Shown piece after piece: positions 2,731-38,042 of a stretch of DNA of 64,000 bases. The number at the start of each line of letters is the position of its first letter. The stretch's first letter is position 1. The position numbers were made by a program, and so were the translations under genes. The notes under the pieces were generated by a model. That model was not told where the DNA came from. It worked only from the letters and a program-made list of their open reading frames with translations, and did not search any database. Origin of the DNA: an uncultured Bacilli bacterium (GTDB lineage: Bacteria; Bacillota_I; Bacilli_A; RF39; UBA660). Location: the NCBI GenBank assembly GCA_934101185.1, contig CAKOQD010000001.1, positions 100,960 to 164,959 of the forward strand, read 5' to 3'.

Positions 2731-3981
2731 TTATAACTTAAGCACCTGTCCCACTGAAAGTGTATTACCAGAAAGTCCATTAAGACTCTTTATCCTATCA
2801 ACCGTAGTATTATTATCCCTAGCAATACCATACAAAGTATCACCTCTTTTAACAACATAAGTCTTTATATTCGCACTATCAGGAATAACAAGCTGTTGCC
2901 CTATAGAAAGAACACTACTACTAAGCTTATTCGCATTCTTTAACTCATCTACACTAATACCATATAAATTAGCAATCTTATACAAACTATCTCCCTTAAC
3001 AACAGTATAAACCTTAACACTTGCATTATTCTCACTAGAAAGTCCAGGTATCAAAAGCTCTTGCCCAATTGACAAACTATTACTACTAAGACTATTCAAC
3101 CTCTTAATATCCTCTACACTAACACCATAACTCTTAGCAATACCATACAAACTATCACCCTTTTTAACATAATAAACACTAGTATCACTTTTCTCTACAA
3201 TATCAGGAATTCTAAGAACCTGTCCAATAGAAAGAACATTACTAGTAAGTTTATTAAAAGTTTTTAAATCCTCAACCGAAACATCATAAAGCCTAGCAAT
3301 ACTATATAAACTATCACCCTTCTTAACCGTATAATAATCTCCCTTCGAAGTAGGAACATAATCATTCTTAGTATAAATAGCAATAGCTCTAACAACAGCC
3401 TCACCATAATCCTCATAATTATTAACAAACTTATTCAAATCATTACTATTATTAACACTAGCATAATTAATAATTACACTCTCACTATCACCAGTATTTC
3501 TAATTATATAATCACTATCAAACGCAGTATCCTCTTCCATTCTAAGTTGATAATACTTATTAATATCAATATCACTATTTTCAAACTGTTCTGCCAAAAT
3601 CTTAGCAAACCTATCACTATCTCTAAGAGCATAAATAATCTCAACCCCAGGAACCGAAGACGAAGACAACCCATTCGTAATAACAATAACATCATCACTA
3701 AAACCAAAACTACTATCTATAAAATCAATTCTCTCATCCAAACTAATATTATTATCACCAGTCCTAGTAATAACATTTTCTATTCCAAGCTCATCAAGTC
3801 TATTTTTTATATAATTAGAAACAAGTAAAGAAACATTCTTCTCAAGAACATTACCACTCTTAAGACCAGTATCACTACCTCCACCAACAGGATTAATTAC
3901 CACTTTATAATTCATAAAAATCACCAATAAATTATATGAAAAAATAAAAAAAATAGCACAAAGGCTATAAAACAATCTCAT
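2731..3981 (-). CDS. N-acetylmuramoyl-L-alanine amidase (Amidase_3) with four C-terminal LysM repeats
   Basis: N-terminal TM segment, amidase_3 core (VVINPVGGGSDTG..EKNVSLLVSNYIKNRL), and four repeats of YxVKKGDSLYxIAxxYxVSVEDxK..LSIGQxLxIP. Confidence 0.8.
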   Translation of the reverse strand: MRLFYSLCAIFFIFSYNLLVIFMNYKVVINPVGGGSDTGLKSGNVLEKNVSLLVSNYIKNRLDELGIENVITRTGDNNISLDERIDFIDSSFGFSDDVIVITNGLSSSSVPGVEIIYALRDSDRFAKILAEQFENSDIDINKYYQLRMEEDTAFDSDYIIRNTGDSESVIINYASVNNSNDLNKFVNNYEDYGEAVVRAIAIYTKNDYVPTSKGDYYTVKKGDSLYSIARLYDVSVEDLKTFNKLTSNVLSIGQVLRIPDIVEKSDTSVYYVKKGDSLYGIAKSYGVSVEDIKRLNSLSSNSLSIGQELLIPGLSSENNASVKVYTVVKGDSLYKIANLYGISVDELKNANKLSSSVLSIGQQLVIPDSANIKTYVVKRGDTLYGIARDNNTTVDRIKSLNGLSGNTLSVGQVLKL

Positions 3982-5692: not shown

Positions 5693-6226
5693 ATGGGATA
5701 CCCATGGCAATGTTCTGACTGTATATGGTTAGATATGAAAGACTCTTCATGGAGAGGTTTTAGATGCACTAAAAAAGGAATATATGTAAACCCAGAAGAA
5801 AGAAGTTGTAATAATCATTTTGAAAAGAAAAATGAAAGCTCTAGCACTTGTTATTTAACTACCGCTATGTGTGAAATACTAAATGAAAAAGATGACTGCT
5901 ACATCCTAGAAACACTAAGATCTTTCAGAGACAACATAATGAAAAATGATGAAAACTGCATCCCTTTACTTGAAGAATACGACGTAATCGGACCACAAAT
6001 ATGTAAAAAACTATACCAAGATGAGCAAAAAGAAGTTATTGCAAGAAGTATGTTATATTTAAGAATATATCCTGCGATTAATGCTATAAAAAATGAAAAA
6101 TATGATGATGCTATAGAAATATATAAAGATATGACTGAATTACTAAAAGAAAAATACAACGTAAAATATGAATGCACTAAAACTACAACACAAAATAAAA
6201 CTAAAAAACTAAATCTACAATACTAA
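5693..6226 (+). CDS. Cys-rich (zinc-ribbon-like) hypothetical protein
   Basis: AGGAGTG RBS. N-terminal CSDC-x14-C-x13-C plus further Cys residues (STCY, AMCE, DDCY, ENCI). Confidence 0.5.
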   Translation: MGYPWQCSDCIWLDMKDSSWRGFRCTKKGIYVNPEERSCNNHFEKKNESSSTCYLTTAMCEILNEKDDCYILETLRSFRDNIMKNDENCIPLLEEYDVIGPQICKKLYQDEQKEVIARSMLYLRIYPAINAIKNEKYDDAIEIYKDMTELLKEKYNVKYECTKTTTQNKTKKLNLQY

Positions 6227-6256
6227 AAAGAAACCACATTAGGTTTCTTTTTTTAT
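6227..6256. terminator. bidirectional rho-independent terminator between convergent genes
   Basis: aaagaaacc/ggtttcttt 9-bp stem flanked by T-runs on both strands. Confidence 0.6.
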
Positions 6257-8541
6257 TCACTTCTAAGAGCAACAACAGGATCCTTACTTCTAGCAACTTT
6301 CGCAGGAATAAATCCTCCTATTAAAGTAAGAACTACACTAACACTAATAAGTATAATAGCATGACTAACACTAAGACTTGCAACACCTTTCAAATCAGAT
6401 AACTTATATATAATATTATTAACAGGAATAGTAAGCAAAACCGCAATACCTATTCCAATAAGACCACTAGTAATACCAATAATAAATGTTTCTGAATTAA
6501 ACACCCTAGTTATATCCTTCTTTCTAGCACCAAGTGCACGAAGTATCCCAATCTCTTTAGTACGCTCTAAAACACTGATATAAGTAATAATACCAATCAT
6601 TATACTAGAAACAACTAAAGAAATAGAACTAAATGCAACAAGAACAATCGTAATAGCATCCATTATATTACCAGAAAGTAAACTAATCATCTTAGCCATA
6701 TCAGTATATAAAATCTTATCATCATCACTCTTACCATCATTATATTTATCCAAATAAGATAAAATCTTTTCTTTAGAACCAAAATCTTTTGGATAAAGCA
6801 TTATATAATTAGGAACACTATCATCACCTAAATATCCAAGAACACTTTCCTTAGTTACACTATCATCAAACTTTTGATAAGTCAAAACATTATAATCACT
6901 ATTCTTTTGATCATTAACTATCTTAGAATCTTTATTAACATCAATTATCTTATTAACAAGTGATGAAGTATATAAAACACCACTACTAACAGACAACATC
7001 TCTTTATCTTTTTTACAACGAATAATAGCTTGAATCTTAATACTCATACTACTCTTATCATTATACATATTTTCATAATCAGTACCCATCATATAATAAC
7101 CATTATTAAATTGATAAAACGAATCATTAAAAATAACCTTAAATTCTTTAGACAATAAATCATCAAAACTAACATCCTTAGAAACATCAAAACCGAGAGA
7201 TTTCAAAACATTCTTATCAACTTGATTATATTTATCTACAACAAGAATAAGTCCAGGAACACTTGTATTAATCTTACCCATAACTACATCATAATTACTT
7301 TCTACAACACCAACACTATCATTAGGATTATCAGGAAACACATTCCAAGAATAATTATCATTACCTAAATTAGCACTCTTTATATATTGATAATTATCTC
7401 CATCAAAAGTAATAACATTTATACTTGTACTTCTAAGATATGAAATACCTCCAAGTAAAGACTTATCAATATCAGAAACATATGAAACATAAGAAGAAGT
7501 AATTTTATTAACATGAGTAGCTTTTTCTAAAACATCATCCTTTGGCACTATAAACTTTTCACTTGTATATTCATGATACTTAGTATCAGAAGAAGACTTC
7601 ATAACATCAGACATTTCTATAGCCTGTTCACTTATAGTAATAGGCATTTGTGATAAAGACTCCCTTTCAAACTCATCAACTTTACCCTGAAATCCATTAG
7701 ATAAAGACAAAATAAGAGCAATACCAATTATACCAATCGAAGAAGCAAAACAAGTAAGTAAAGTTCTACCCTTTTTAGTAATTATATTAGTAAAAGAAAG
7801 CTTTAAAGCAGTCAAAAATGACATCGAAGTCTTTCTAAAACTATAACTACTAGAATCTTCTTCATCATAAGGATTAGAATCATCAACGATCTTTCCATCC
7901 TTTAAACTAATAATTCTACTTGAGTACTCCCTAGCAAGTTCACTATTATGAGTAACCATAATAACAAGCTTATCCTTAGATATTTCTTTAATTAAATCCA
8001 TAATTTGAACACTAGTAACAGAATCAAGTGCTCCAGTAGGTTCATCTGCCAAAATAATATCAGGATCATTCACCAAAGCACGAGCAATCGCAACCCTTTG
8101 CATTTGCCCACCAGATAACTGATTAGGCTTTTTATTAGCATGATCCAAAAGACCCACTCTAGAAAGAGCATCCATTGCCTTCTTCTTTCTTTCTCTTCTA
8201 GAAACACCAGAAAGAGTCATTCCAAGTTCTACATTACTTAAAACACTAATATGAGGAATCAAATTATAACTTTGAAAAATAAAGCCTACAGAATTATTCC
8301 TATAACTATCCCAATCTCTATCTCTAAACCTTCTAGTAGACTTACCATTTATAATCAAGTCCCCACTGTCGTACTTATCTAAACCACCAATTATATTTAA
8401 AAAAGTTGTCTTGCCACTTCCAGAAGGACCAAGAATACTAACAAACTCACTACTTCTAAATTTTACACTAACATCATCTAAAGCCTTTTGAACAAAATCC
8501 CCAGTTTTATAACTCTTAACTATATGCTTAACCTCTAACAT
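6253..8541 (-). CDS. fused ABC transporter ATP-binding/permease protein (MacB/FtsX-like)
   Basis: Walker [10 protein letters not shown], signature [15 protein letters not shown], Walker [12 protein letters not shown]. Large extracytoplasmic domain and C-terminal FtsX-like 4-TM permease. Start refined to MLEVKHIV behind GGAGGA. Confidence 0.85.
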
Positions 8542-24827: not shown

Positions 24828-25775
24828 CTAAAACAACTCCTTTTTCTCTATATCAACAATATCCATATAATTATTAGGAAATCCCATCCTATCAAGAACC
24901 TTATCAATAGGAATACTCCTTAAATTAAACTCTAAATTACTAATCGCTTTATCAACCTCATTAATCATATCCTTAACTTCATTATCCTTAAGCAAAGACT
25001 TTAAAATTATAACAAGAGCATATAAATCATTCTTACCATATATAAACTCATTATCCATCATAGGAATATTAAGTATTCTATGATATTTAGTATCATTAAT
25101 ATACTTTTGAGTTCTATTATCAAACATTATATCCTCATGAGCACATAAATTACGATAATTAGAAAGTATAACCAAGTAATTAGAAAAAACATCTATATCC
25201 AAATCATACAAATCAACAATCTCATACTGATCCTCTTTCTTTAAAACAGAAAAAAGTTCAGAAACAATTCCAAAAGATAATACTTTAACAAGAACCCATA
25301 AAGGAATATAACCATAATTATTAACATAATGTTGAGTAGCAGCATGCTGAGTAGCATTAGTTTTAATTTGTCTTTTCATCTTAGATATAAGATCACTAAC
25401 CTGCTTTCTCTTCGCACCATTATTAACAAAGTTATTTGGATTTAAATAATCTTTTTCTTTATAACCATATTTTTTAGACAATTGATAAGAAATAATAGAC
25501 TTTACATTATTCTCAACAATCAAAATATTTTTAAAAAATATACTTCTAAGTCTTCGATCAAACAAAAACAAACTATATAATTCCTCAATTTTAGTCCCAG
25601 GAATATACATACTATTATCTGAAGATTTCATAAACAAATGACGATAACCATTCAAAAAGAAATAATTTTCACGAAGTAATATTTCCTTAGCATAATCTTC
25701 ATTATCTATAACTAATCCTTTATTTCTAAGGATTTCAACTTGTTCATCTAAAGTTTTAAATATTTTCTTCCCCAT
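24828..25775 (-). CDS. Abi2-family (AbiD/AbiF-like, HEPN-domain) putative abortive-infection protein
   Basis: Abi_2-like layout including LSFGIVSELF and an Rx4H HEPN motif (RNLCAHED). Own promoter (TTGAAA-18-TGcTATAAT at 25799-25828) and AGGAGAA RBS. Confidence 0.5.
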   Translation of the reverse strand: MGKKIFKTLDEQVEILRNKGLVIDNEDYAKEILLRENYFFLNGYRHLFMKSSDNSMYIPGTKIEELYSLFLFDRRLRSIFFKNILIVENNVKSIISYQLSKKYGYKEKDYLNPNNFVNNGAKRKQVSDLISKMKRQIKTNATQHAATQHYVNNYGYIPLWVLVKVLSFGIVSELFSVLKKEDQYEIVDLYDLDIDVFSNYLVILSNYRNLCAHEDIMFDNRTQKYINDTKYHRILNIPMMDNEFIYGKNDLYALVIILKSLLKDNEVKDMINEVDKAISNLEFNLRSIPIDKVLDRMGFPNNYMDIVDIEKKELF

Positions 25776-26331: not shown

Positions 26332-26763
26332 CTATTTAACTTCAAGCACTTCTGGCTTTTGAGCCATATGTGGATGAGTTTCTCCTTCATAAACAAATAA
26401 TTTCTTAGCCATTGCTCTACCTAATCTATTATGAGGTAGCATTCCTTTAACAGCTCTTTCAACCATTTCAACTGGATACTTTTCTTTCATTTCTCTAGCA
26501 GTTCTTTCTCTTAAACCACCAGTATATCCAGAATGGTTGTAATAAATTTTCTTATCTAACTTATTACCAGTAAGATTTACTTTACCAGCATTAGTGATAA
26601 TAATATAATCCCCACAATCAATATGTGGTGTATAAGTAGCTTTATGTTTTCCTCTTAACATATGAGCAACTTTACTAGCTAAACGTCCTAAAGTAACATC
26701 AGTAGCATCAATGACATACCAATTACGTTCAACTGTTTCTTTTTTTTGCATATAACTTTTCAT
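26332..26763 (-). CDS. rplM: 50S ribosomal protein L13
   Basis: [39 protein letters not shown]. Promoter TTGACT-17-TATAAT at 26854-26882. Confidence 0.9.
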
Positions 26764-26929
26764 AATTTAAATCCTCCTATTTTTTTATATTAATTAATAT
26801 AAGAGTTCCCAATTCCCATAAAAATCAATATATAAGAAAATGTACCGACTAAAATTATACTAAAATTATACGTTTAAGTCAATAGTTTTAGCACTTTTTT
26901 AACACACTTTAAACATTATCTTACAAAAC

Positions 26930-28507
26930 TTACTTTCCACTTTCTCCATAATTAGATAAAACCCTAGCAGAAGGATCATCAACATCACATCCTACCCAGT
27001 TTTTATTTGGCATCCAATAATCAACAATCATATCATCCAAAGAAGGATAATACTTTTCAAATATTTCACGATAAAGCAACGATTCTTTAGTAAAAGGTCT
27101 ATTTTTAATCGGATACTTAAGTATCAAACGTTCAAACTCATCATCACTATATTTTTCTGAAGCATACTCTTTTAAATAATCAACCATCGAATGACCAACA
27201 GCATCACTAAACGCAGCCTTTTCACGATATAAAATATCATCAGGCAAATACCCATCAGAAAAAGCTTTTCTTAATAAATACTTTCCTTTATTATAAACAT
27301 TCATTTTCTTTAAAGGATTAATCCCCATAACATAATTAACAAAACTCAAATCTGCAAAAGGAACCCTAGCCTCAAGAGAACACCCAGATATACACCTATC
27401 AGCACGTAAAACATCATACATATAAAGCTCCCTTATTCTTTTTTCACTCTCTTTTTGAAACTCCAAAGCTGATGGAGCAAAATCAGTATACTTATATCCA
27501 AAAAGTTCATCGCTAACTTCACCAGTAAGTAATACCTTTATATCAGTATTATCCCTAATCCACTTAGTAAGAATATACATTCCAATAGAAGCCCTAATAG
27601 TAGTAATATCCCAAGTCTCTAAATGATATATAACCTCATCCAAAGAAGAAATAACATCAAAAGGAGTCATAATAACCTCAGTATGAAAACTTCCAATAAA
27701 ATCCGCCACCTCTTTAGCATACTTTAAATCAATAGCATCACTTTCCATACCAATTGCAAATGTTCTAATTGGCTCTTTCATATTTCTAGAAGCAATACAA
27801 CATACTAAACTAGAATCTAAACCACCACTAAGTAAAAAACCACAAGAAGCATCAGAATCAATCCTTTTTATAACGCCTTTCTTAAGTTTTTTTCTAATAT
27901 TATTACAAATAACATCTAAATCATCATCAATAAATTTACTATATTTACAAGCATCATAATACTGAACAAACTCCCCATCTTTATAATAATAACCCGGAGG
28001 AAAAGGCTTAATACCTTTACATAATCCAACCAAAGCCTTTGCCTCACTAGCAAACATTATTTGTCTACTGACAAGAGAATATCCATAAAATAAAGGTCTA
28101 ATCCCAATCGGATCACGCGCGGCAATAAAACTTTTTCCATCAAAAATGACACAAGAAAACTCAGCATCAAGTTTTTTAAACATTTCAACTCCATATTCAT
28201 TATACAAAGGAAGTAGAACTTCACAATCACTATTTGAACAAAATCTATACCCTTTCTTTTCCAAAGATTTTCTTATCTTTCTAAATCCAAATATTTCACC
28301 ATTACATACAACCTTCATATCTTTATAATAAAATGGTTGCATTCCAGCATTAGATAAATCCATAATAGACAAACGATGAAAACCCCACATTCCATTAGTA
28401 AAATCAGTCCTAGAAAAATCAGGACCTCTATAACTAATTTTACAAAACCCCTTTAAAAACTCTTCTTCACTAATATCGTTTTTAGTATAAACCATAAAAC
28501 TACACAT
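26930..28507 (-). CDS. asnB: asparagine synthetase (glutamine-hydrolysing), AsnB family
   Basis: N-terminal Cys2 amidotransferase domain (MCSF..GMWGFHRLSIMD) and a PP-loop SGGLDSS. Confidence 0.8.
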   Translation of the reverse strand: MCSFMVYTKNDISEEEFLKGFCKISYRGPDFSRTDFTNGMWGFHRLSIMDLSNAGMQPFYYKDMKVVCNGEIFGFRKIRKSLEKKGYRFCSNSDCEVLLPLYNEYGVEMFKKLDAEFSCVIFDGKSFIAARDPIGIRPLFYGYSLVSRQIMFASEAKALVGLCKGIKPFPPGYYYKDGEFVQYYDACKYSKFIDDDLDVICNNIRKKLKKGVIKRIDSDASCGFLLSGGLDSSLVCCIASRNMKEPIRTFAIGMESDAIDLKYAKEVADFIGSFHTEVIMTPFDVISSLDEVIYHLETWDITTIRASIGMYILTKWIRDNTDIKVLLTGEVSDELFGYKYTDFAPSALEFQKESEKRIRELYMYDVLRADRCISGCSLEARVPFADLSFVNYVMGINPLKKMNVYNKGKYLLRKAFSDGYLPDDILYREKAAFSDAVGHSMVDYLKEYASEKYSDDEFERLILKYPIKNRPFTKESLLYREIFEKYYPSLDDMIVDYWMPNKNWVGCDVDDPSARVLSNYGESGK

Positions 28508-28525
28508 ATAAATACCTCCCTATAA

Positions 28526-28800
28526 TAAATTAAAAATAACCAGTATTCATCCTACAAAGGGACGAAAACTGGTTATTCCGCGGTACCACCCAATTTATCA
28601 TAAATATTATTTATATGATCACTTTCAGTTCTAACAAACCTAGTATTAAGATAACGGATACAGACCGGCTTAGCCTACTTGCAAACTTTCGGTAAGCAAC
28701 TAAAAAGTGTTATTCACAAAGACTTCATTATTAGTTTCACACTATCACTAACTCACTTTAAACTCCATCAAAGCTACTTCTCTTTCTCAAAGTTATTAAA
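28526..28800 (-). ncRNA. T-box riboswitch leader of asnB (probable Asn specifier)
   Basis: On the minus strand, AAATTGGGTGGTACCGCGG at 28578-28596 matches the T-box consensus. It is followed by a terminator (AATAACCAGT...ACTGGTTATT plus U-run, 28530-28577), then GGGAGG and the ATG. A candidate specifier GAAUAACA (AAC, Asn) lies on the 3' side of stem I. Confidence 0.7.
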
Positions 28801-28803
28801 AAA

Positions 28804-28833
28804 ATTATAATACTCAAAAAAGCAATATGTCAA
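28804..28833 (-). promoter_or_regulatory. sigmaA-type promoter for the asnB T-box leader
   Basis: TTGACA (28828-28833), 18-nt spacer, TATAAT (28804-28809). Confidence 0.55.
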
Positions 28834-28844
28834 GTATTTTTTTA

Positions 28845-28873
28845 AAAAATAAAAAACTCTCATAAAGAGAGTT
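28845..28873 (-). terminator. rho-independent terminator after the tRNA cluster
   Basis: aactctc-ataaa-gagagtt stem plus T-run on the minus strand. Confidence 0.55.
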
Positions 28874-28885
28874 TACTTACATATT

Positions 28886-28962
28886 TGGTGACCCGTACGG
28901 GATTCGAACCCGAGAATGCCACCGTGAAAGGGTGGTGTGTTAAGCCGCTTCACCAACGGGCC
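28886..28962 (-). tRNA. tRNA-Glu (anticodon UUC)
   Basis: Cloverleaf GGCCCGTTGGTGAAGCGG...CCACCCTTTCACGGTGG...GGTTCGAATCCC...CCA; anticodon loop CTTTCAC. Confidence 0.85.
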
Positions 28963-28970
28963 AATAATAA

Positions 28971-29047
28971 TGGCGCCCCAACTAGGACTTGAACCTAGGA
29001 CCCCTTGATTAACAGTCAAGTGCTCTAACCAACTGAGCTATTGAGGC
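28971..29047 (-). tRNA. tRNA-Asn (anticodon GUU)
   Basis: GCCTCAATAGCTCAGTTGGTTAGAGC...CTTGACTGTTAATCAAG...GGTTCAAGTCC...GCGCCA. Confidence 0.85.
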
Positions 29048-29052
29048 ATATA

Positions 29053-29129
<77 letters not shown>

Positions 29130-29230
29130 ACAATGCAAACTTATGTAAGCAATATAAATGATACTATATATTTTATGATTTTGCAAGTGATTTTTTGCAT
29201 TTTTTTAATATTTTTTTATTTTTTTAAAAA

Positions 29231-30235
29231 TTATGACAATTTTTCACTAGATTTTGCATTAAGATCAAGTCCAGCACGCACACCTTTCTTATATAAAAAA
29301 TATCCACACGCTGCAATCATCGTAGCATTATCAGTACAATATTTCATATCTGGATAACTAAATGAAAATCCATTTATTAAAGCTTCCTTTTCTAAAGCTT
29401 CCCTTATTCCCCTATTCGCAGCAACACCACCCGCTACTATAAGATTATTAATATTATACTCTTTTAATGCCTTAACAGTCTTAAAAACTAATGATTTAAC
29501 AACAACATCTTGAAAAGAAGCACATAAATCTTCCTTATTAATAACATTACCACGTTGTTCTTCATTATGCACCAAATTAATAACAGCACTCTTAAGACCA
29601 CTAAAACTAAAATTATAACTATCATCATTCATAGGAATAGGTAAATGATAACTTACCTTACCAACATGAGCAAGCTTATCAACAAGTGGTCCTCCAGGAT
29701 AACCAATTCCAACAACACGAGCCACTTTATCATAACATTCACCAACTGCATCATCAAGCGTTCCACCAATTTTAAAATAACTCAAATGATCATCCATCTT
29801 AATAAGTTCCGTATGACCACCACTTATAACAAGAGCTAAAAGAGGAAACTCAAGCTCATGACCAATATTATTTGCATAAATATGACCTGCAATATGATGA
29901 ACAGGTATCAAAGGCTTATCATACACATAAGCAATAGTCTTCGCAGCCTCAAGCCCCACCAATAAAGATCCAATAAGACCAGGACCATACGTAACAGCAA
30001 CTGCATCAATCATATCCATCGAAATACCAGACTCCTTAAGACACTTATCAATTACAAAAGTAATATCCTTAACATGATTTCTACTAGCAATCTCAGGAAC
30101 AACCCCTCCATACAACGTATGAATATCTATTTGACTAAGAATAACAGTATTAATTTCACAACAACCATTCTTAACAATAGAAACACTAGTCTCATCACAA
30201 CTACTTTCAATACCTAAAATATAAACATCCTTCAT
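29231..30235 (-). CDS. tsaD: tRNA N6-adenosine threonylcarbamoyltransferase TsaD
   Basis: MKDVYILGIESSCDETSVSIV...HIAGHI. Confidence 0.9.
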   Translation of the reverse strand: MKDVYILGIESSCDETSVSIVKNGCCEINTVILSQIDIHTLYGGVVPEIASRNHVKDITFVIDKCLKESGISMDMIDAVAVTYGPGLIGSLLVGLEAAKTIAYVYDKPLIPVHHIAGHIYANNIGHELEFPLLALVISGGHTELIKMDDHLSYFKIGGTLDDAVGECYDKVARVVGIGYPGGPLVDKLAHVGKVSYHLPIPMNDDSYNFSFSGLKSAVINLVHNEEQRGNVINKEDLCASFQDVVVKSLVFKTVKALKEYNINNLIVAGGVAANRGIREALEKEALINGFSFSYPDMKYCTDNATMIAACGYFLYKKGVRAGLDLNAKSSEKLS

Positions 30236-30609
30236 AAAATCAACTCCATCAAAATACCATCTACTCCATTATAATAACCATATCTTTTAGCAACCTCTAC
30301 AAAACCAAACTTCTTATACAATGAAATAGCACTACTATTTAACACACTAACCTCTAAAGTAATATTATAAATATTAATACTTCTAAGATAATCAATCAAA
30401 TACTCCAACATCAAAGACCCAATCCCCATATTCCTTTTATCCTCATTAACAAAAATATTACATATCTCCGCTTTCTCATATAAAACACTATACTCAATAT
30501 ATCCAACAACTTCACCATCTAAAATATATCCAATATACTTAACAAAAGGATTCGAAGTCTTAGAAACCCCAAAAGATGAAAGTAATAAAACATCAACATC
30601 CTTAACCAT
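30232..30609 (-). CDS. rimI: GNAT acetyltransferase (ribosomal-protein-alanine acetyltransferase RimI-like)
   Basis: GNAT motif NIFVNEDKRNMGIGSLMLEYLI, in the tsaB-rimI-tsaD context. Confidence 0.7.
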   Translation of the reverse strand: MVKDVDVLLLSSFGVSKTSNPFVKYIGYILDGEVVGYIEYSVLYEKAEICNIFVNEDKRNMGIGSLMLEYLIDYLRSINIYNITLEVSVLNSSAISLYKKFGFVEVAKRYGYYNGVDGILMELIL

Positions 30610-31216
30610 TTAACTTTTCCTCAGCTTCTACTCTTTTTAAATAATTAGGAACAAATGAAAAACTATCACTAACATTATCCATATCTAAATATTTAAAAAT
30701 TCTCTCAACATTAGGAACATACTCTATTGAACCATTAAATCCATTTGATGAAACATAAACAAAAGAATCAAGCCCACTTACTCTACTAGACAATTCTTCT
30801 AAAGAAATATAACAATCTTTCATAACAACATTATAGTTCTTATCATAAATACCAGCATAAACATAACCACGTCTTGCATCAATAATAGGCACTATATAAT
30901 CACCTTCTACTCCAGTAGCAAGAACATACAAACTAGAAACACCCACAATATCAATATTAAGACTATATGCCCAAACCTTAGCAATAGTAACACCAATCCT
31001 AAGCCCAGTAAAAGATCCAGGACCATTAACACAAACTATTCTCTCAATATCCTTCTTAGAAATAGAAAGTCTATTCAACATATCATCAATAACACTAAGA
31101 GTAATCTTAGATAAATCATTATTAAGCTTAGTATAAAAAGAATCTAAAACAACATCATCCTTAACAATAGCAACAGATAAAAAATCAACCGAAGTATTTA
31201 AAAAAAGACTTATCAT
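30602..31216 (-). CDS. tsaB: tRNA threonylcarbamoyladenosine biosynthesis protein TsaB
   Basis: NGPGSFTGLRIGVTIAKVWAY. Confidence 0.8.
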   Translation of the reverse strand: MISLFLNTSVDFLSVAIVKDDVVLDSFYTKLNNDLSKITLSVIDDMLNRLSISKKDIERIVCVNGPGSFTGLRIGVTIAKVWAYSLNIDIVGVSSLYVLATGVEGDYIVPIIDARRGYVYAGIYDKNYNVVMKDCYISLEELSSRVSGLDSFVYVSSNGFNGSIEYVPNVERIFKYLDMDNVSDSFSFVPNYLKRVEAEEKLNG

Positions 31217-31665
31217 AATACCGCCTCACATAAGTCTTCATATCTTTTTCCAATAGGCTTAATAATAACAAGTCTAGTATCTTCACCAATAATCCTAAAA
31301 TTAATTTCCAATCTTTCTTCAGGAAGCAGATCCTTAATCATATCAGACCATTCAATAATAGTAACACCCTTCTTGACAAAATACTCAGAAAAATCAATTT
31401 CAACATCAGTCTCATCTAATCTATAAACATCCATGTGAAAAAGAGGAACCTCTCCTGAAGTATATTCCTTAACTATATTAAATGTCGGAGAAGTAATAAC
31501 TTCATCAATACCTAAAGCACTAGCAAAACCCTTAGCAAAAACAGTCTTACCACTACCTAAGTCTCCATTTAAACAAATAACCATATTACAAAACTTTTCT
31601 GACTCTATATTTTGAGCAAGTTCAATAGTTTCACTTTCATCTCTTAAAGTAATTTTATATTCCAT
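31213..31665 (-). CDS. tsaE: tRNA threonylcarbamoyladenosine biosynthesis ATPase TsaE
   Basis: LNGDLGSGKTVFAKGFA...SPTFNIVKEY. Confidence 0.8.
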   Translation of the reverse strand: MEYKITLRDESETIELAQNIESEKFCNMVICLNGDLGSGKTVFAKGFASALGIDEVITSPTFNIVKEYTSGEVPLFHMDVYRLDETDVEIDFSEYFVKKGVTIIEWSDMIKDLLPEERLEINFRIIGEDTRLVIIKPIGKRYEDLCEAVL

Positions 31666-31729
31666 AATTAATCACCAATATTAATTTTACACAAAAAAAA
31701 GATGTATATCAACACCTTTTAACAATTTT

Positions 31730-32266
31730 CTATTTTTTTACTTTAACTTTATATATTTTTTCTTCATTCTTATAATTAAATATAGTACAAATACCCACTA
31801 CTATTAAGAAAACCCCTAAAAATATACCAGTAAATAATACTGAAATAATCGGAGTAACAAGCACTAATAAACCTACAATAAGTTTAAGAATACTAGTCAC
31901 TAACATAGTTTGGCTAAAATAATCCTTACTTCTTACATTAAGTAAAAGTACCAAAGAAGATAAAGAAGTAGAAAGTAACCAAAGTCCAATAAATATAGAT
32001 ATTATCTTAGTAGTAGTATCAGGATTCAAAATAAGCACAAACCCAAATAAAGTATTTAAAAAACCACTCATAAACACATTACCAGGTAAATAAACATAAT
32101 CCCTATTAACAAAAGCATATACTATTTTTATTACTCCAGTTATCAAAAGAACAATCCCTACAAAAAACACTAATTTAGAAAAAGATTGTTCAGGATTAAC
32201 AAGTAAAACTGCCCCACCAACTATAAGAAGTAACCCAATTATAAAATTCCATATTTTTTTTGACAT
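31730..32266 (-). CDS. DUF308/HdeD-like membrane protein
   Basis: Repeated TM pairs with GxxxIxxG patterns. Confidence 0.4.
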   Translation of the reverse strand: MSKKIWNFIIGLLLIVGGAVLLVNPEQSFSKLVFFVGIVLLITGVIKIVYAFVNRDYVYLPGNVFMSGFLNTLFGFVLILNPDTTTKIISIFIGLWLLSTSLSSLVLLLNVRSKDYFSQTMLVTSILKLIVGLLVLVTPIISVLFTGIFLGVFLIVVGICTIFNYKNEEKIYKVKVKK

Positions 32267-32282
32267 ATAAATTCCTCCCATA

Positions 32283-32672
32283 TTAATATTTTAAATCATC
32301 ATCCAACTTCCAAACACCATCTTTACTACTAGAATTATAAACCTTATATGAAAAAGATTTATCAAAAGGAGTATAAACAGCATATAAAGAAATAGTTTTA
32401 TTCTTAGATAAAGGTATAACAGTCTCACCAATAGGTTGATAAACAACTTCACATTTATAAACATATGAAGACCCATTATCCTCCAAATAGACACAATGTC
32501 TATCAATAATCTCATTTATATTTTCTATTTTTTTTCTAATATCACCAAGATTATCATCAGCAAACCATGCATCTATAGCTACTTCTCCAAACTTTGGATT
32601 ATGATAAGGATTAAAGATACATCCAGTAAGTAAAAAACAAATAATTAAAATAAATAAATACTTAACTTTCAT
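32283..32672 (-). CDS. putative lipoprotein
   Basis: Signal peptide with lipobox LLTGC. Confidence 0.5.
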   Translation of the reverse strand: MKVKYLFILIICFLLTGCIFNPYHNPKFGEVAIDAWFADDNLGDIRKKIENINEIIDRHCVYLEDNGSSYVYKCEVVYQPIGETVIPLSKNKTISLYAVYTPFDKSFSYKVYNSSSKDGVWKLDDDLKY

Positions 32673-32718
32673 ATCATTACCTCAATATAATAATATCATA
32701 AAAAAGAAAAAAAATCTA

Positions 32719-33420
32719 CTACTCTAACATATCATTAGCTTTTAGATCATTTTTCATAAATGTAACAAGATTATCACTATTATCAAGAGTAGCAAGCAAT
32801 ATATCAGAAGAATTCTTCCCTAAAGATTTGAGTTTATTTACCAACCAATCTTTACTCTTACCCATTTCCTTAAGATTTAGTTCCATAATATTACCATCTA
32901 TAATAACATTAGCGCACATACTAGAAGATTTAACTTTAATATCCATATCCTTAATAGTAACAGGTTTATTCTCAGCCTTAGGAAGAATACTAAGCTTTCC
33001 ATCAGACTCAACCAAAGCATAAGCAATCTCTGAAACATCAAAATATCCCATAGAACGACATTGTTCCAATAAATCATTTATATCAAACTTAACAGTTTTA
33101 AGACCACCCTCTAAAATAACACCATCTCTAATTACCATATTAGGTTTACCCATAAAAAATCTTCTTAAAACAATACTCTTCATAGTTAAAACATTAATAA
33201 GATAAGCAACAACACCATATATCAAAACAGCAATAGTTCCAAACATAATATCAGAATCAATATTAATAGTCATTTCAGCAGCAAAATTACCTATAGATAT
33301 CCCAATAACATAATCAAACAAACTAAGTTGAGAAACCTGTTTTTTACCTATTATCTTAGCAACCAAAAATAAAGTTACCAAAGAAAGAAAAGCTCTAAAA
33401 GAAACTTGTAATAAATCCAT
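32719..33420 (-). CDS. DUF421 (YetF-family) membrane protein
   Basis: MDLLQVSFRAFLSLVTLFLVAKIIGKKQVSQLSLFDYV. Start refined. Confidence 0.6.
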   Translation of the reverse strand: MDLLQVSFRAFLSLVTLFLVAKIIGKKQVSQLSLFDYVIGISIGNFAAEMTINIDSDIMFGTIAVLIYGVVAYLINVLTMKSIVLRRFFMGKPNMVIRDGVILEGGLKTVKFDINDLLEQCRSMGYFDVSEIAYALVESDGKLSILPKAENKPVTIKDMDIKVKSSSMCANVIIDGNIMELNLKEMGKSKDWLVNKLKSLGKNSSDILLATLDNSDNLVTFMKNDLKANDMLE

Positions 33421-33579
33421 TATATCACCAATAATAATATAACCAATAAAAAGAAAAGAATACAAAAAAGAAATAGATTACTCTATTCCCTTTAACTTTT
33501 CCACTTCCTCACAAACACTTCCTGAAACATCTTTTCAAACACTATCATTTTAAAATGTCTATTTTATATAAAATGCTTT

Positions 33580-33606
33580 AAAAAAAAGACTTCAAAAATG
33601 AAGTCT
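33580..33606 (-). terminator. rho-independent terminator after the Big_2 surface-protein gene
   Basis: agacttca-aaaa-tgaagtct stem plus T-run. Confidence 0.55.
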
Positions 33607-33619
33607 ATTAATAAATATA

Positions 33620-36253
33620 TTATTTAGATTTAACACTAGTAACTGAACCAGATTGATAAGAATTACCCGCTTTATCTTTAATTACTACATAATAATTATA
33701 AGTAACTCCAGACTTAGATGTTTTAAATGTGTGTTTTACATCCCAAGACTTTGGATAATTTGAATTAGTATATGTGTAATGATAAGTAGTATTACTACTA
33801 TTATTAGTATAATAGAACGTAACAGATGCAACACCAGAATTAGAATCAGCAGCAGTAACAGATAATGTCATTTTACCAGATGTAGCAGTAGAATTAAGCT
33901 TACCAGAAGCAGATATATAAGGATTAGTCCTATCAGGATAACCAATAATTGTAATACTTTGTTTAAATACATATGTTTTACCATCACTATCAGTAGCAGT
34001 AGCAGTAAGTGCATGTGTACCATTATTCTTACCGGTAGCATTAGCCATAGTAGCCTCTAATGCTGATGTCGTTTTACCAATACCTTGCTTAGATTTAATA
34101 CTAACAGAACCAGTATTAGAAGTAAGAGTAAGATTGTTTATAGAAGTATTAGTAGCAGTACAATCAACAGATATACTAAGTTGAGATGCAACAATCTTAT
34201 CAAGAGCAGAGCCACTTAATTTTTTACCATCTTGATCATAAAAACTATATGAACAACTGATACTTTTATCAACCGGTTTATTTGTGACAGTAACTGCTAT
34301 AACTTTAGAAACATTAGAATTACTTGCAGAAGTAACTTTTATAGTAGTTGTACCATATTTTTTACCAGTTATAACACCACTACTAGAAACAGTAGCAACA
34401 CTAGTATTACTACTACTCCAATTTAAACTTTTATTAGTAGCATTACTTGGTAATACGGTAGTAGAAATACTCTTAGTATCACCAACATACAAATCAACCG
34501 AAGTAGGAGTCACTATTAAATCAGTAACCTTAACAGTTGTTGGATTAGTAGATCCACCACTGCTAGAAGAAGACTTTACTGTAACATTCATTGACGCTGT
34601 AACAGTACCATCAGTAGTATAAGCAGAAATCTTTGTACTACCAGCACTAACTCCAGTTACATTACCTTTACCATCAACCTTAGCTATATTAGTATTATGT
34701 GATACCCAAGTAACAGTTTTAATAGAAGCATTACTTGGCGAAACAGTAGCAGTAACAGTTTTTCTAGCACCAACATTTAAAGTAAGTGAACTTGGACTTA
34801 ATGTAATCTTAGTGGCCTTAATAGGATTGCTCTTAGTAACCACTACTTTTACTTTATCAGAAACACCATCAACACTCTTTATAGTAATATAAGCCGTTCC
34901 AGCACCAACACCAGTAACTTTTCCAGTACTACTAACTTTAGCAACAGAAGGATTATTAGTATCCCATGATACTTTTTTATTAGTAGCATTACTTGGTGTA
35001 ATAGTATAAGTTAAAGTCTTAGTATTACCAACTTTAATAGAAAAATCATCACTATTTATAGAAACTTTAGTAACTTTTCTGTATTTAGAACTAGATCCAC
35101 CACTAGATGAACCTCCACTACTAGAAGAGCTACCAGAAGAACTAGAACTTGCTTTCTTAACTGTAACATTAGCCATAGCAGTCTTATTACCATCTTGAGT
35201 AGTAACAGTAATAACAGCACTACCAACACCTACACCAACAACTTTACCTTTACTAGATACAAGAGCAACACTTTCATTACTAGATGACCATGTAACAGAC
35301 TTATTAGTAGCATCACTTGGAGATACAATAGCAGATAAACTACCATTGCTACCAACAGATATAGTAAGAGATGTAACATTAAGTTTAACACCAGTTACAG
35401 AATTAATTCCAGAAGCTGCTACAACATCAACCTTTTTAGTAACAGTTTTATAACCATTATTAATTTTAATAGTAGTACTACCTTTCTTTTTAGCAGAAAC
35501 TACACCATCACTAGACACAGTAGCTACTTCTTCATCAGTACTAGTATATTTTATATTTTTATAACATTCATCATAAACACCTAAATCAATATTTAAACTT
35601 AAATCATCACCTGTAGCAACTTTATAATTGCTATCACCAAATATATTTTCATCAAACTTAGGACAAACAACAACTTCGTTTTCATATGTACCAACCTTTT
35701 TACCATTATCAAAAGCTTGAACAGATATTTTTACTTTACCATCCTTTTTAGGAATCATTGTATTAGCAGTATCACCTGCTGCAAGGGACTTATATTCAAA
35801 TTGAAGAATATCTTCGTTATCACTACTAAATTTATAGAATAATTCCTTATCAGAATTAGGAATAGCAGTAACAAACTCAACCTCACTACCAGCATAAACA
35901 ACACCTGGAACATCCAAATTTAATTTTTTATTACCTTTTCCAAATAAAGACGCAAACAATATTATTAGTAACACTATAGCAACAATAACTGCAATAACAA
36001 TAATAAGTTTTTTCTTAAGTCCATTATCACTGTTAGAGTAATTACCAGCATCAGAATTGCCAAAGTCACTATAATCTGGTTGATCATAACTAGCATTTCC
36101 TAAATTTGAATTATCATACTGATTCATATTATTAGAACCAAAATCACTATTTTCATAATTATTAAATTGATTATTATCCATACCAGTATTATTCATATCA
36201 TTACTATTATTATTAAAATTATCATTATTTACATTGTTATCATTAAAACTCAT
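33620..36253 (-). CDS. large type-II membrane/surface protein with multiple Big_2 (bacterial Ig-like) domains, an N/D-rich cytoplasmic N-terminal tail and an S/G-rich linker
   Basis: GGAGGG RBS. About 100 aa of N/D/Y-rich low complexity, one TM helix (LIIVIAVIVAIVLLIILFASLF), five or more Big_2 repeats, and an S/G linker (SSSSSGSSSSSGGSSSGGSSS). Confidence 0.7.
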   Translation of the reverse strand: MSFNDNNVNNDNFNNNSNDMNNTGMDNNQFNNYENSDFGSNNMNQYDNSNLGNASYDQPDYSDFGNSDAGNYSNSDNGLKKKLIIVIAVIVAIVLLIILFASLFGKGNKKLNLDVPGVVYAGSEVEFVTAIPNSDKELFYKFSSDNEDILQFEYKSLAAGDTANTMIPKKDGKVKISVQAFDNGKKVGTYENEVVVCPKFDENIFGDSNYKVATGDDLSLNIDLGVYDECYKNIKYTSTDEEVATVSSDGVVSAKKKGSTTIKINNGYKTVTKKVDVVAASGINSVTGVKLNVTSLTISVGSNGSLSAIVSPSDATNKSVTWSSSNESVALVSSKGKVVGVGVGSAVITVTTQDGNKTAMANVTVKKASSSSSGSSSSSGGSSSGGSSSKYRKVTKVSINSDDFSIKVGNTKTLTYTITPSNATNKKVSWDTNNPSVAKVSSTGKVTGVGAGTAYITIKSVDGVSDKVKVVVTKSNPIKATKITLSPSSLTLNVGARKTVTATVSPSNASIKTVTWVSHNTNIAKVDGKGNVTGVSAGSTKISAYTTDGTVTASMNVTVKSSSSSGGSTNPTTVKVTDLIVTPTSVDLYVGDTKSISTTVLPSNATNKSLNWSSSNTSVATVSSSGVITGKKYGTTTIKVTSASNSNVSKVIAVTVTNKPVDKSISCSYSFYDQDGKKLSGSALDKIVASQLSISVDCTATNTSINNLTLTSNTGSVSIKSKQGIGKTTSALEATMANATGKNNGTHALTATATDSDGKTYVFKQSITIIGYPDRTNPYISASGKLNSTATSGKMTLSVTAADSNSGVASVTFYYTNNSSNTTYHYTYTNSNYPKSWDVKHTFKTSKSGVTYNYYVVIKDKAGNSYQSGSVTSVKSK

Positions 36254-36312
36254 ACTATTCCCTCCGACTATTCTATATATAACATGATATCACAAAAAAA
36301 AAAGAAATACAA

Positions 36313-37095
36313 TCATAAAAAATCACATTTCTTACATAATTCTTCGCATTTAAGATTATTTTTAAATCCATTAAGCATTTTTATATATCGAGCACTATTC
36401 ACAATATCATCTAAATCATTTTCATAAATATTCCCAAATACTATCTCACCACCCGAATCTAAACAACAAGGAACAACACTACCATCTACTAAAATTCCAA
36501 TATGATCTCTTAATGCATAGCAAGTGCCAACACTATTATTAATTTCATTATTCAAACTAGGCCATACAAAAGACTCATTAAAATTAACAAATACTCTATC
36601 CTTAAGTTTAATAGAATCATTAACACCTATTTTAGTATTATAGTGCTTTTCTAACAAAGAAATAATTTTATTTGTATTATTATTAAAAACCCATAATCTA
36701 TAAGACACATAAGTATTAGGCAACTTATCCACAACAGAAAATATACTATTCATATAATCAGTCAACAAAATACCATACTTTTTATCATAACTATGTAAAG
36801 ATATATTAATTTGTCTAATATTTTTACTTTTAATTCTATCTATCAAATACCCATTAGTAGTAATATTAACATAATAAGAACTAGACGCCATATCAATAAG
36901 CTCATTAATTCTAGGATGCATTAATGGTTCCCCCATTACATGCAAATATAAATACTTAGTATAATTCTTTAACTTATCCAAAATAATATTAAATTCATTA
37001 ATACTAATAAACTTTTTATCACGTTTATTTCCAATACAAAAATCACAACTAAGATTACAATTATTAGTAACTTCTACATAAACTTTTTTATACAT
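36313..37095 (-). CDS. radical SAM enzyme with a C-terminal SPASM/twitch-like Cys cluster (AlbA/anSME/PqqE subfamily-like)
   Basis: CNLSCDFC (CxxxCxxC), GEPLMHP, and C-terminal Cys at TCYAL, PCCLD, CEELCKKC. 8-bp overlap with the upstream gene. Confidence 0.7.
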   Translation of the reverse strand: MYKKVYVEVTNNCNLSCDFCIGNKRDKKFISINEFNIILDKLKNYTKYLYLHVMGEPLMHPRINELIDMASSSYYVNITTNGYLIDRIKSKNIRQINISLHSYDKKYGILLTDYMNSIFSVVDKLPNTYVSYRLWVFNNNTNKIISLLEKHYNTKIGVNDSIKLKDRVFVNFNESFVWPSLNNEINNSVGTCYALRDHIGILVDGSVVPCCLDSGGEIVFGNIYENDLDDIVNSARYIKMLNGFKNNLKCEELCKKCDFL

Positions 37096-37585
37096 AATTT
37101 CCCTTTCTATCCACCAAATCTTCAAAAAAAATACGTTCATCCTCAATATATCCAATTCTATCTCTATAAAGAGGATGAATCATTAAAAGCAATGATGGAT
37201 CAATAACATATTCATCTGTTTCTAACCACCAATGACTATTATCATTCGAATAAATAACATTATCTAAAATAGGTAGTCTTCCATGAACAATATCAATATC
37301 ATTATACTTCTTATAAAGCATTTTTACAACACATTCAGAAGCACCAATATTATACCCTTCTCTAAAAAAAGATAAAAAATCAGAAAAACATCCATCCATA
37401 CTATAATCAATTGAAGAAACCTTATCCCATTCTAAATCATTAAATTTTCTTATAAAACCCGTTCTAAGTCCTAAAGTTATAATATTATCAAAATCACTAC
37501 TTTTAAATCTCAAATAATTAAGTAAATCAAAACCTCTGAACTCATCATTTCCAACAACTTCCCTATAAAAATCATTTTTTAACAT
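37088..37585 (-). CDS. hypothetical 165-aa protein co-transcribed with the radical SAM gene
   Basis: AGGAGAG RBS. Conserved-looking Cys/His/Trp (DGCFSD, ASECV, DIVHGRLP, SHWWLETDEY). No family recognised. Confidence 0.45.
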   Translation of the reverse strand: MLKNDFYREVVGNDEFRGFDLLNYLRFKSSDFDNIITLGLRTGFIRKFNDLEWDKVSSIDYSMDGCFSDFLSFFREGYNIGASECVVKMLYKKYNDIDIVHGRLPILDNVIYSNDNSHWWLETDEYVIDPSLLLMIHPLYRDRIGYIEDERIFFEDLVDRKGNYV

Positions 37586-37680
37586 AACACACTCTCCTAT
37601 TAAAAACACTATAACACAATTAAAAAGAGTTTATGCGCAAAAACGACAAAAAGTTACAAAAATATAATACAGTAATCAAA

Positions 37681-37712
37681 ACCAAAATAAAAGAACTAGA
37701 TTAAACTAGTTC
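37681..37712 (-). terminator. rho-independent terminator of the alpha operon, overlapping the rplQ stop codon
   Basis: gaactag..ctagttc 7-bp stem containing the stop codon, with a T-run downstream on the minus strand. Confidence 0.55.
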
Positions 37713-38042
37713 AATTATAGCCATTAACGCGTCATCTCCACGTCTTTCATCTAATTTTAATATTCTAGTATACCCACCATTACGTTGTTCATAACGAGGA
37801 GCTATTTCTTCGAATAATTTCTTAGTAGCTTCTTTATTATTCATTAAGAAAGCTGCTGCTTTTCTACGAGAAACTAAACTATCATTCTTTCCATAAGTAA
37901 CCATTTTATCAAAACATCTTCTTACTTCTTTAGCCCTAGTCTCTGTAGTAGTAATTCTTTCATTCATAATAAGACTAATAGTAAGATTAGCTAACATACT
38001 TCTTCTATGCTTATTATCAACACCTAATTTTCTATATCCCAT
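37701..38042 (-). CDS. rplQ: 50S ribosomal protein L17
   Basis: [21 protein letters not shown]. Confidence 0.9.

Follow-up and report, generated by a model that had tools for sequence, protein, structure and literature searches.

Two adjacent genes in the genome of an uncultured Bacilli bacterium, here called A and B, are real and probably coupled, and the reading that we favour, with moderate confidence, is that they do not form a conserved two-component system: B is a copy from a family of radical S-adenosylmethionine (SAM) enzymes whose genes stand alone, and A is a clade-specific, probably non-catalytic addition. The genes lie in a stretch of 64,000 nucleotides (assembly GCA_934101185.1, contig CAKOQD010000001.1, positions 100,960 to 164,959), which is referred to as the window and whose numbering is used throughout; loci of relatives carry numbers beginning with L. 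An earlier note on this DNA had proposed an undescribed modification system. Its observation is confirmed here by computational analysis, and its interpretation is partly supported. The locus is laid out as follows.

37585..37088, minus strand: gene A, 165 amino acids (aa), start codon ATG (MLKNDFY...), stop codon TAA
37095..36313, minus strand: gene B, 260 aa, start codon ATG (MYKKVYV...), radical SAM enzyme with a predicted truncated SPASM (twitch-like) C-terminal domain
37088..37095, minus strand: overlap of A and B, 8 bp ATGTATAA, with the B start codon over the A stop codon
37712-37693, minus strand: terminator-like hairpin with a T-run, 7-bp stem including 3 G-C pairs, tail TTTTATTTTG
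38042-37701, minus strand: rplQ, upstream of A, its stop codon overlapped by the hairpin
33620..36253, minus strand: Big_2 gene, 877 aa, Asn-rich N-terminus, membrane-anchored by one helix, five Big_2 repeats

The two minus-strand genes, their 8-bp overlap and their position behind the rplQ hairpin are as first described. The geometry of the overlap suggests translational coupling, and both start codons are preceded by AGGAG-like sites. The hairpin overlaps the rplQ stop codon and marks off the A-B unit on its upstream side; a scan of 2.2 kb gave two terminator-like sites, with 0.1 expected from shuffled sequences. The spacers measure 115 bp from the rplQ stop codon to A and 59 bp from B to the Big_2 gene, so that of the two intergenic distances given earlier (59 bp and 90 bp) the former stands and the latter is corrected. 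The earlier note had allowed that A might prove not to be conserved. Homologues of both A and B keep the reading frame and show purifying selection, with rough ratios of nonsynonymous to synonymous substitution (dN/dS) of 0.17-0.39 among the closer A pairs and 0.24-0.29 in B, and we conclude that both open reading frames (ORFs) are real genes. The G + C content is 26% in A, 24% in B and 29% in the window, an offset that is not distinctive, and horizontal insertion of the two genes as a unit was rejected as an explanation.

The evidence against a conserved pairing comes from the distribution of the two families. The B family comprises more than 5,300 protein clusters at 90% identity, hundreds of them about 60% identical and 260-270 aa long; its members are lone enzymes of 255-300 aa from anaerobic members of the Bacilli and Clostridia. 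When one genome of each species was scanned, at least 573 relatives came up, and the best 80 of these were taken as genome loci; they belong to uncultured gut Bacilli, 'Tenericutes', Erysipelotrichaceae and several Clostridia (Clostridium cibarium, C. vincentii, Tissierella, Anaerocolumna and Fervidicella). When the neighbours at 85 B-family loci were clustered, A was present in three, namely the window, L001 and L011, the last two being a single close relative. Most often the neighbour was uvrA (19 of 85 loci), and others included SpoIIM, MnmA, SpoIVB, HD proteins, M16 peptidases, NrdD, MsrA, Lit, SbcD and NadC; no small neighbour recurred. A hidden Markov model of the A family was applied to every ORF at the 80 genome loci and matched only in L011, and a B-family gene was found at none of 78 loci of distant A relatives. 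With A beside B in one of 80 loci on the one side and B in none of 78 on the other, the idea of a dedicated, self-contained two-gene modification system is not supported.

The assignment of B to the radical SAM superfamily is clear, since it carries the CX3CX2C motif and matches Radical_SAM (PF04055) with 51.5 bits against a cut-off of 29.5. It also matches SPASM (PF13186) with 56.4 bits against a cut-off of 21.5. The conservation of its cysteines was assessed in 84 family members of 38-82% identity.

37036..37059 (codons), minus strand: radical SAM [4Fe-4S] motif of B, C13-x3-C17-x2-C20, each position Cys in 83 of 84 members
36325..36522, minus strand: auxiliary-cluster region of B, C192-x12-G205-x4-C210-C211 ... 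C254-x2-C257

The five C-terminal cysteines C192, C210, C211, C254 and C257 are present in all 84 members, and C250 is not conserved (20 of 84). A full SPASM domain has seven cysteines in the pattern CX9-15GX4C-gap-CX2CX5CX3C-gap-C and holds two auxiliary clusters. In B, C192-x12-G205-x4-C210 corresponds to the first half of this pattern and the second half is reduced to CX2C, three residues before the end of the protein; despite the Pfam match, B thus lacks the seven-Cys, two-cluster domain. The C-terminal Cys cluster that the earlier note had reported for this compact enzyme is borne out as a predicted auxiliary Fe-S domain, and its assignment to a full SPASM is not. At the level of sequence B has the features of a twitch domain, a truncated SPASM with four cysteines for one auxiliary cluster, and we assign its C-terminal domain to this class as a predicted twitch of the BtrN type.

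None of the NCBIfam family models came near its cut-off on B, the best being TIGR04317 (67.7 bits, cut-off 380). Scores and cut-offs were 46.8 and 284 for MoaA, 28.3 and 260 for QueE, 30.6 and 180 for viperin, 27.6 and 300 for SkfB, and 35.3 and 381 for PqqE, and by NCBIfam B belongs to none of the curated housekeeping radical SAM families (MoaA, QueE, NirJ/Ahb, PqqE, MftC, viperin). The earlier note had named membership in such a family, for example MoaA or QueE, as a result that would overturn it, and this did not materialize. Matches of B to the pVip models of PADLOC cover the N-terminal core only.

The profile of the B family found as its top match in the PDB (E = 1.1e-11) BtrN (4M7S/4M7T), the 2-deoxy-scyllo-inosamine dehydrogenase of butirosin biosynthesis and the type example of a twitch radical SAM enzyme. 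C192, C210, C254 and C257 of B align with the BtrN cysteines at chain positions 169, 188, 232 and 235, which we take to be the ligands of its auxiliary cluster. The two proteins are also alike in size (269-270 residues in the crystallised BtrN chains, 260 aa in B) and in having CX3CX2C within the first 25 residues. They differ in that the likeness is distant and confined to two short aligned stretches, that the B family has an additional invariant cysteine (C211), and that BtrN is the enzyme of an aminoglycoside cluster whereas the B family is a lone gene of gut anaerobes. The 85 B-family loci show housekeeping neighbours and no recurrent biosynthetic partner, and B is not classed as a BtrN orthologue. 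The twitch domain of BtrN binds one auxiliary [4Fe-4S] cluster through four Cys ligands, and this cluster is thought to take up an electron in a two-electron oxidation (PMC9012708). By analogy, one auxiliary cluster and hence oxidative chemistry would be expected for B: the N-terminal cluster would reductively cleave SAM, the resulting 5'-deoxyadenosyl radical would take a hydrogen atom from the substrate, and the fully Cys-ligated auxiliary cluster would receive the second electron. The net reaction would be a two-electron oxidation of the dehydrogenation type, like those of BtrN and anSME.

On this analogy B is most likely a BtrN-like oxidising radical enzyme with a substrate common to many species. 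As hundreds of species retain the family as a lone gene, the substrate would be common to them, either a small metabolite or a protein encoded elsewhere; protein A and the Big_2 protein, both of which the earlier note had put forward, are unlikely substrates.

The conversion of queuine to preQ1 acts on an aminocyclitol-like group, a chemistry that could be expected of a BtrN-like enzyme in gut bacteria auxotrophic for the precursor. From this analogy comes the idea that B is an already described enzyme of nucleoside or cofactor salvage, for example the queuine lyase QueL; we consider this very unlikely. QueL is a radical SAM enzyme of the gut bacterium Clostridioides difficile (PMC11570991, PMC12632869), where it is CD1684 (UniProt Q186P0). 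The frequency of the B family in small-genome gut Bacilli would fit such a role. The gene of QueL belongs to an operon that is under a preQ1 riboswitch and also contains queK and qrtT (PMC11477304). No riboswitch was found in the window, no riboswitch or Q-salvage neighbour was seen close to B-family genes, and among 90 B-family loci a nucleoside-hydrolase motif occurred in none and a tRNA-guanine transglycosylase (TGT)-like motif within 6 kb in two. In the gut-genome rows considered from dataset S1 of PMC11130926, Erysipelotrichales among them, QueL is scored as absent.

A second alternative, which we regard as highly improbable, is that B is a peptide or surface-protein maturase that installs crosslinks or formylglycine on a short peptide or on the adjacent Big_2 protein (877 aa) and is helped by A as a protease. 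The Pfam SPASM match would agree with it, as many SPASM enzymes modify peptides or proteins (PMC10114670); the Big_2 gene follows B after 59 bp with no terminator-like site between them, and A stands next to a Big_2 gene again in L096. Neither spacer flanking A-B contains a credible short ORF for a precursor peptide, however, in agreement with the earlier note, and CX3CX2C begins at residue 13 of B, which leaves no N-terminal extension for a recognition domain such as the recognition element (RRE) of maturases of RiPPs (peptides that ribosomes synthesise and that are then modified post-translationally). The absence of a recurrent small neighbour in the 85 loci, where the B family stands alone, and the five C-terminal cysteines in place of a two-cluster SPASM also separate B from RiPP maturases. 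The gene that follows B is a GT2 glycosyltransferase gene in L097 and encodes a different protein of 660-681 aa in L001, and A is without the Cys nucleophile that a leader protease would be expected to have. B shares with anSME/AtsB and with the SPASM peptide maturases (AlbA, SkfB, PqqE, MftC) its membership in the radical SAM/SPASM-twitch superfamily, in which the auxiliary cluster is the electron acceptor in two-electron oxidations. These enzymes are longer (330-450 aa against 260 aa); anSME, AlbA, PqqE and MftC have the seven-Cys two-cluster domain against the five cysteines of B; and peptide maturases often have an N-terminal recognition domain and a substrate gene alongside, neither of which accompanies B.

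Gene A, which the earlier note had been unable to assign, matched no family in Pfam and NCBIfam and none in PHROGs and PADLOC. Its 13 close homologues (53-98% identity) are all metagenomic. When 1.84 billion representative proteins were searched with a profile, 70 relatives were recovered at E <= 1e-3, 29 of them below 1e-10 and most of them 160-200 aa long; at about 70 clusters at 50% identity, this is a small orphan family. Its alignment is marked by the motifs G-x-N-I-G-x-C, G-T-x-N-S-x-x-G-x-H-x-W-L-E and I-x-D-[TP]-[ST]-L-M. The strings DGCFSD, ECV and DIVHG, whose residues had been thought to look conserved, are present in A, but their Cys and His residues are not conserved; the only residues conserved among the homologues are H118, W120 and D129 (HWWLETD...IDP). 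The three positions of the putative triad are as follows.

37337-37339, minus strand: Ser83 of A, nucleophile position
37232-37234, minus strand: His118 of A, His in 60 of 63 family members
37199-37201, minus strand: Asp129 of A, Asp in 62 of 63 family members

The nucleophile column holds Cys in 43 of the 51 members outside the clade of the window; in that clade (n = 12) it holds Ser in ten members, Ala in two and Cys in none. An AF2 model of A built with 63 sequences had a predicted local distance difference test (pLDDT) value of 89.7 and a predicted template modelling (pTM) score of 0.87, against a pLDDT of only 49.9 with the 12 close homologues. In the model residue 83 opens helix 83-93, His118 opens strand 118-122 and Asp129 ends the next strand. 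Together with the family motifs, this layout bears out the earlier guess of a papain- or transglutaminase-like fold, and the A family is predicted to have a papain-like Cys-His-Asp arrangement. Like the papain/transglutaminase-like hydrolases (for example the SseI catalytic domain, 4G29, and LapG, 4FGO), the family has a Cys at the N-terminus of a helix, followed by a His and then an Asp, in the motifs G-x-N-I-G-x-C, H-x-W-L-E and I-x-D-[TP]. The protein of the window differs in having Ser83 where a cysteine hydrolase has its Cys nucleophile, and the A-family profile had no match among PDB sequences. A Foldseek search of the model against the PDB and BFVD also gave no significant match, and PF24591 (Phage_YunG-like) matched weakly in 5 of 53 family members.

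The replacement of the Cys nucleophile by Ser, and by Ala in a sister lineage, indicates that A is probably non-catalytic, either a pseudo-enzyme or a binding protein, and at the most a hydrolase of the Ser-His-Asp type. We consider A to be a real gene of an apparently undescribed papain-like family, in a branch that lacks the Cys nucleophile.

The neighbours of the distant A relatives at the 78 loci are variable housekeeping genes (polA, nrdDG, uvrD-like, penicillin-binding protein, RNase HIII, CvpA and amidase genes), and some members are oriented divergently to genes of leucine-rich repeat (LRR) or Flg_new proteins, the LRR surface proteins being those of L091 and L092. In L094 two A-family paralogues, at 3157-3852 (234 aa) and 6001-6489 (162 aa), flank a 650-aa Flg_new repeat protein. 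In the human-gut contigs L103-L121 (e.g. L112 4081-4692 and L113 5001-8026) a Cys-bearing A-family gene stops 2 bp before polA; upstream in the same group lie nrdD-nrdG and a 187-204-aa ORF with a weak, sub-threshold match to the toxin domain CdiA_C (E = 4e-5). A toxin-immunity role for the A family was considered and rejected: the CdiA_C-like ORF lies 270-330 bp off, does not reach the Pfam cut-off and occurs in one species group only, and elsewhere the neighbours are housekeeping genes.

Within the clade of the window the pairing itself is real. A followed by B after rplQ was found in the window, in L001-L004 and L011 (A 73% identical) and in L097 and L098 (A 75% identical). The 8-bp overlap is kept in L097 and L098, and also in L001 if B starts at MYKK. 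The flanks vary: in L001 inserted AAA_21 and RloB genes separate rplQ from A and B is followed by the gene of a different secreted protein of 660-681 aa, and in L097 a GT2 glycosyltransferase gene and an adenine glycosylase gene follow B. On the favoured reading, A would have acquired its place upstream of B within a single genus-level clade of uncultured gut Bacilli.

A more distant group, L096 and L099-L101, has an A that is 53% identical and carries Ala at the nucleophile position; here an orthologue of the Big_2 gene follows A after 73-95 bp with no B between. Positions 312-837 of L096 correspond to 37662-37143 of the window and positions 1009-1981 to 36098-35117. Because L096 and the window align in the DNA to either side of the missing gene, the two lineages differ cleanly in the presence or absence of B. 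The neighbourhood of A, B and the Big_2 gene, which the earlier note had wanted checked for conservation, is not constant: other genes follow B in relatives, and L096 has A and the Big_2 gene without B. The Big_2 protein belongs to the surroundings of A-B and is no conserved partner of the two.

Several points weigh against our preferred reading of A as an incidental addition to a lone enzyme. At least three diverged versions of the locus (A 73-100% identical) share the 8-bp overlap while both flanks change, and some degree of selection for co-expression of A and B is therefore possible. The state of the nucleophile position follows the presence of B, the Ser variant belonging to loci with B adjacent and the Ala variant to loci without B, although this concerns two lineages only. 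The orthology of B with the lone members is judged from 60% identity, conserved residues and weak DUF421/DUF308 synteny, and the likeness to BtrN is distant and rests on one profile match at the sequence level. B may have a clade-specific extra role.

The corresponding alternative is a clade-specific functional pair, in which B has taken A on as its substrate or as an accessory subunit; for example, B would oxidise Ser83 to an aldehyde, as anSME acts on Ser or Cys of sulfatases, or A would present the substrate. We think this unlikely. The overlap conserved between changing flanks would be explained by it, as would the Ser83 position, which is Ser in all ten clade members at least 71% identical to A, with B adjoining A on every one of their contigs that reaches the next gene, and Ala in two members whose loci lack B; A and B are also under similar purifying selection. 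On the other hand, B keeps all residues that are invariant in the family and looks orthologous to the lone copies in species without A, A is retained in L096 and L099-L101 although no B adjoins it there, and the Ser/Ala correlation comes from two independent lineages only. Its most specific form, which we rate as decidedly unlikely, is that B has gained a dedicated partner in A, a papain-fold protein with its Cys turned to Ser, and modifies Ser83 or uses A for substrate delivery. If this were true, Ser83 converted to formylglycine or another radical-installed group would be a new type of active site, and A-B would be a newly evolved two-protein radical maturation pair.

Past the Big_2 gene the order is DUF421/YetF, a 129-aa ORF, DUF308, tsaE-tsaB-rimI-tsaD, three tRNA genes, a T-box, an asparagine-synthase-like gene and rplM-rpsI.

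31730-33465: DUF421/YetF and DUF308 genes, just past the Big_2 gene
28889-29129: three tRNA genes, ahead of the T-box leader and asparagine-synthase-like gene
28555-29129, minus strand: T-box leader (121 bits) together with these tRNA genes, the leader being upstream of the asparagine-synthase-like gene at 26930-28507
26763-25898: rplM-rpsI, 11 kb past rplQ
24828-25775, minus strand: Abi_2 (abortive-infection-like) gene, directly after rplM-rpsI, with an HtrA-like protease gene next

In Bacillus subtilis the interval from rplQ to rplM holds ecfA-ecfA'-ecfT-truA. Among the ORFs scanned between rplQ and rplM of the window (26763-38042) no ECF-transporter genes were found, as had been stated before.

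The Big_2 protein has a long Asn/Asp-rich N-terminal tail followed by a single membrane helix, which is not a classical signal peptide, and the motif NASY[DE]QPDYSDFG is kept in its orthologues in L096 and L099. Two Bacilli that are more distant have DUF308 or DUF421/YetF genes directly 3' of B-family genes (L005 5845-6480 and L009 5845-6564). This position directly after B relatives points to an older neighbourhood of the radical SAM gene and DUF421/DUF308 into which the Big_2 gene was inserted.

The AAA_21 ATPase and RloB genes of the closest relatives (L001 5803-7664; also L002, L003 and L011) lie between rplQ and A, are both missing from the window, and resemble an abortive-infection or OLD-like defence pair. 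With the Abi_2 gene after rplM-rpsI and AAA_21/RloB after rplQ, the arrangement suggests that in the lineage of the window defence-type genes tend to settle at the ends of ribosomal-protein operons. An anti-phage defence function of A-B was rejected, as AAA_21/RloB is inserted beside the pair in L001 and is absent from the window and from L097.

The locus has a corrective value, because its 8-bp overlap mimicked a new modification cassette, and the pairing is confined to one narrow clade while the two families are otherwise separate. A belongs to an undescribed small family, predicted to be papain-like, whose Cys-less branch beside a radical enzyme lends itself to a cheap test of partner recruitment. 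The radical SAM enzymes of the B family, similar in size to BtrN, form a very large and uncharacterised group across anaerobic Firmicutes, including gut lineages with small genomes, and their retention as a lone gene throughout these bacteria suggests a common housekeeping or salvage reaction that would merit biochemical assignment.

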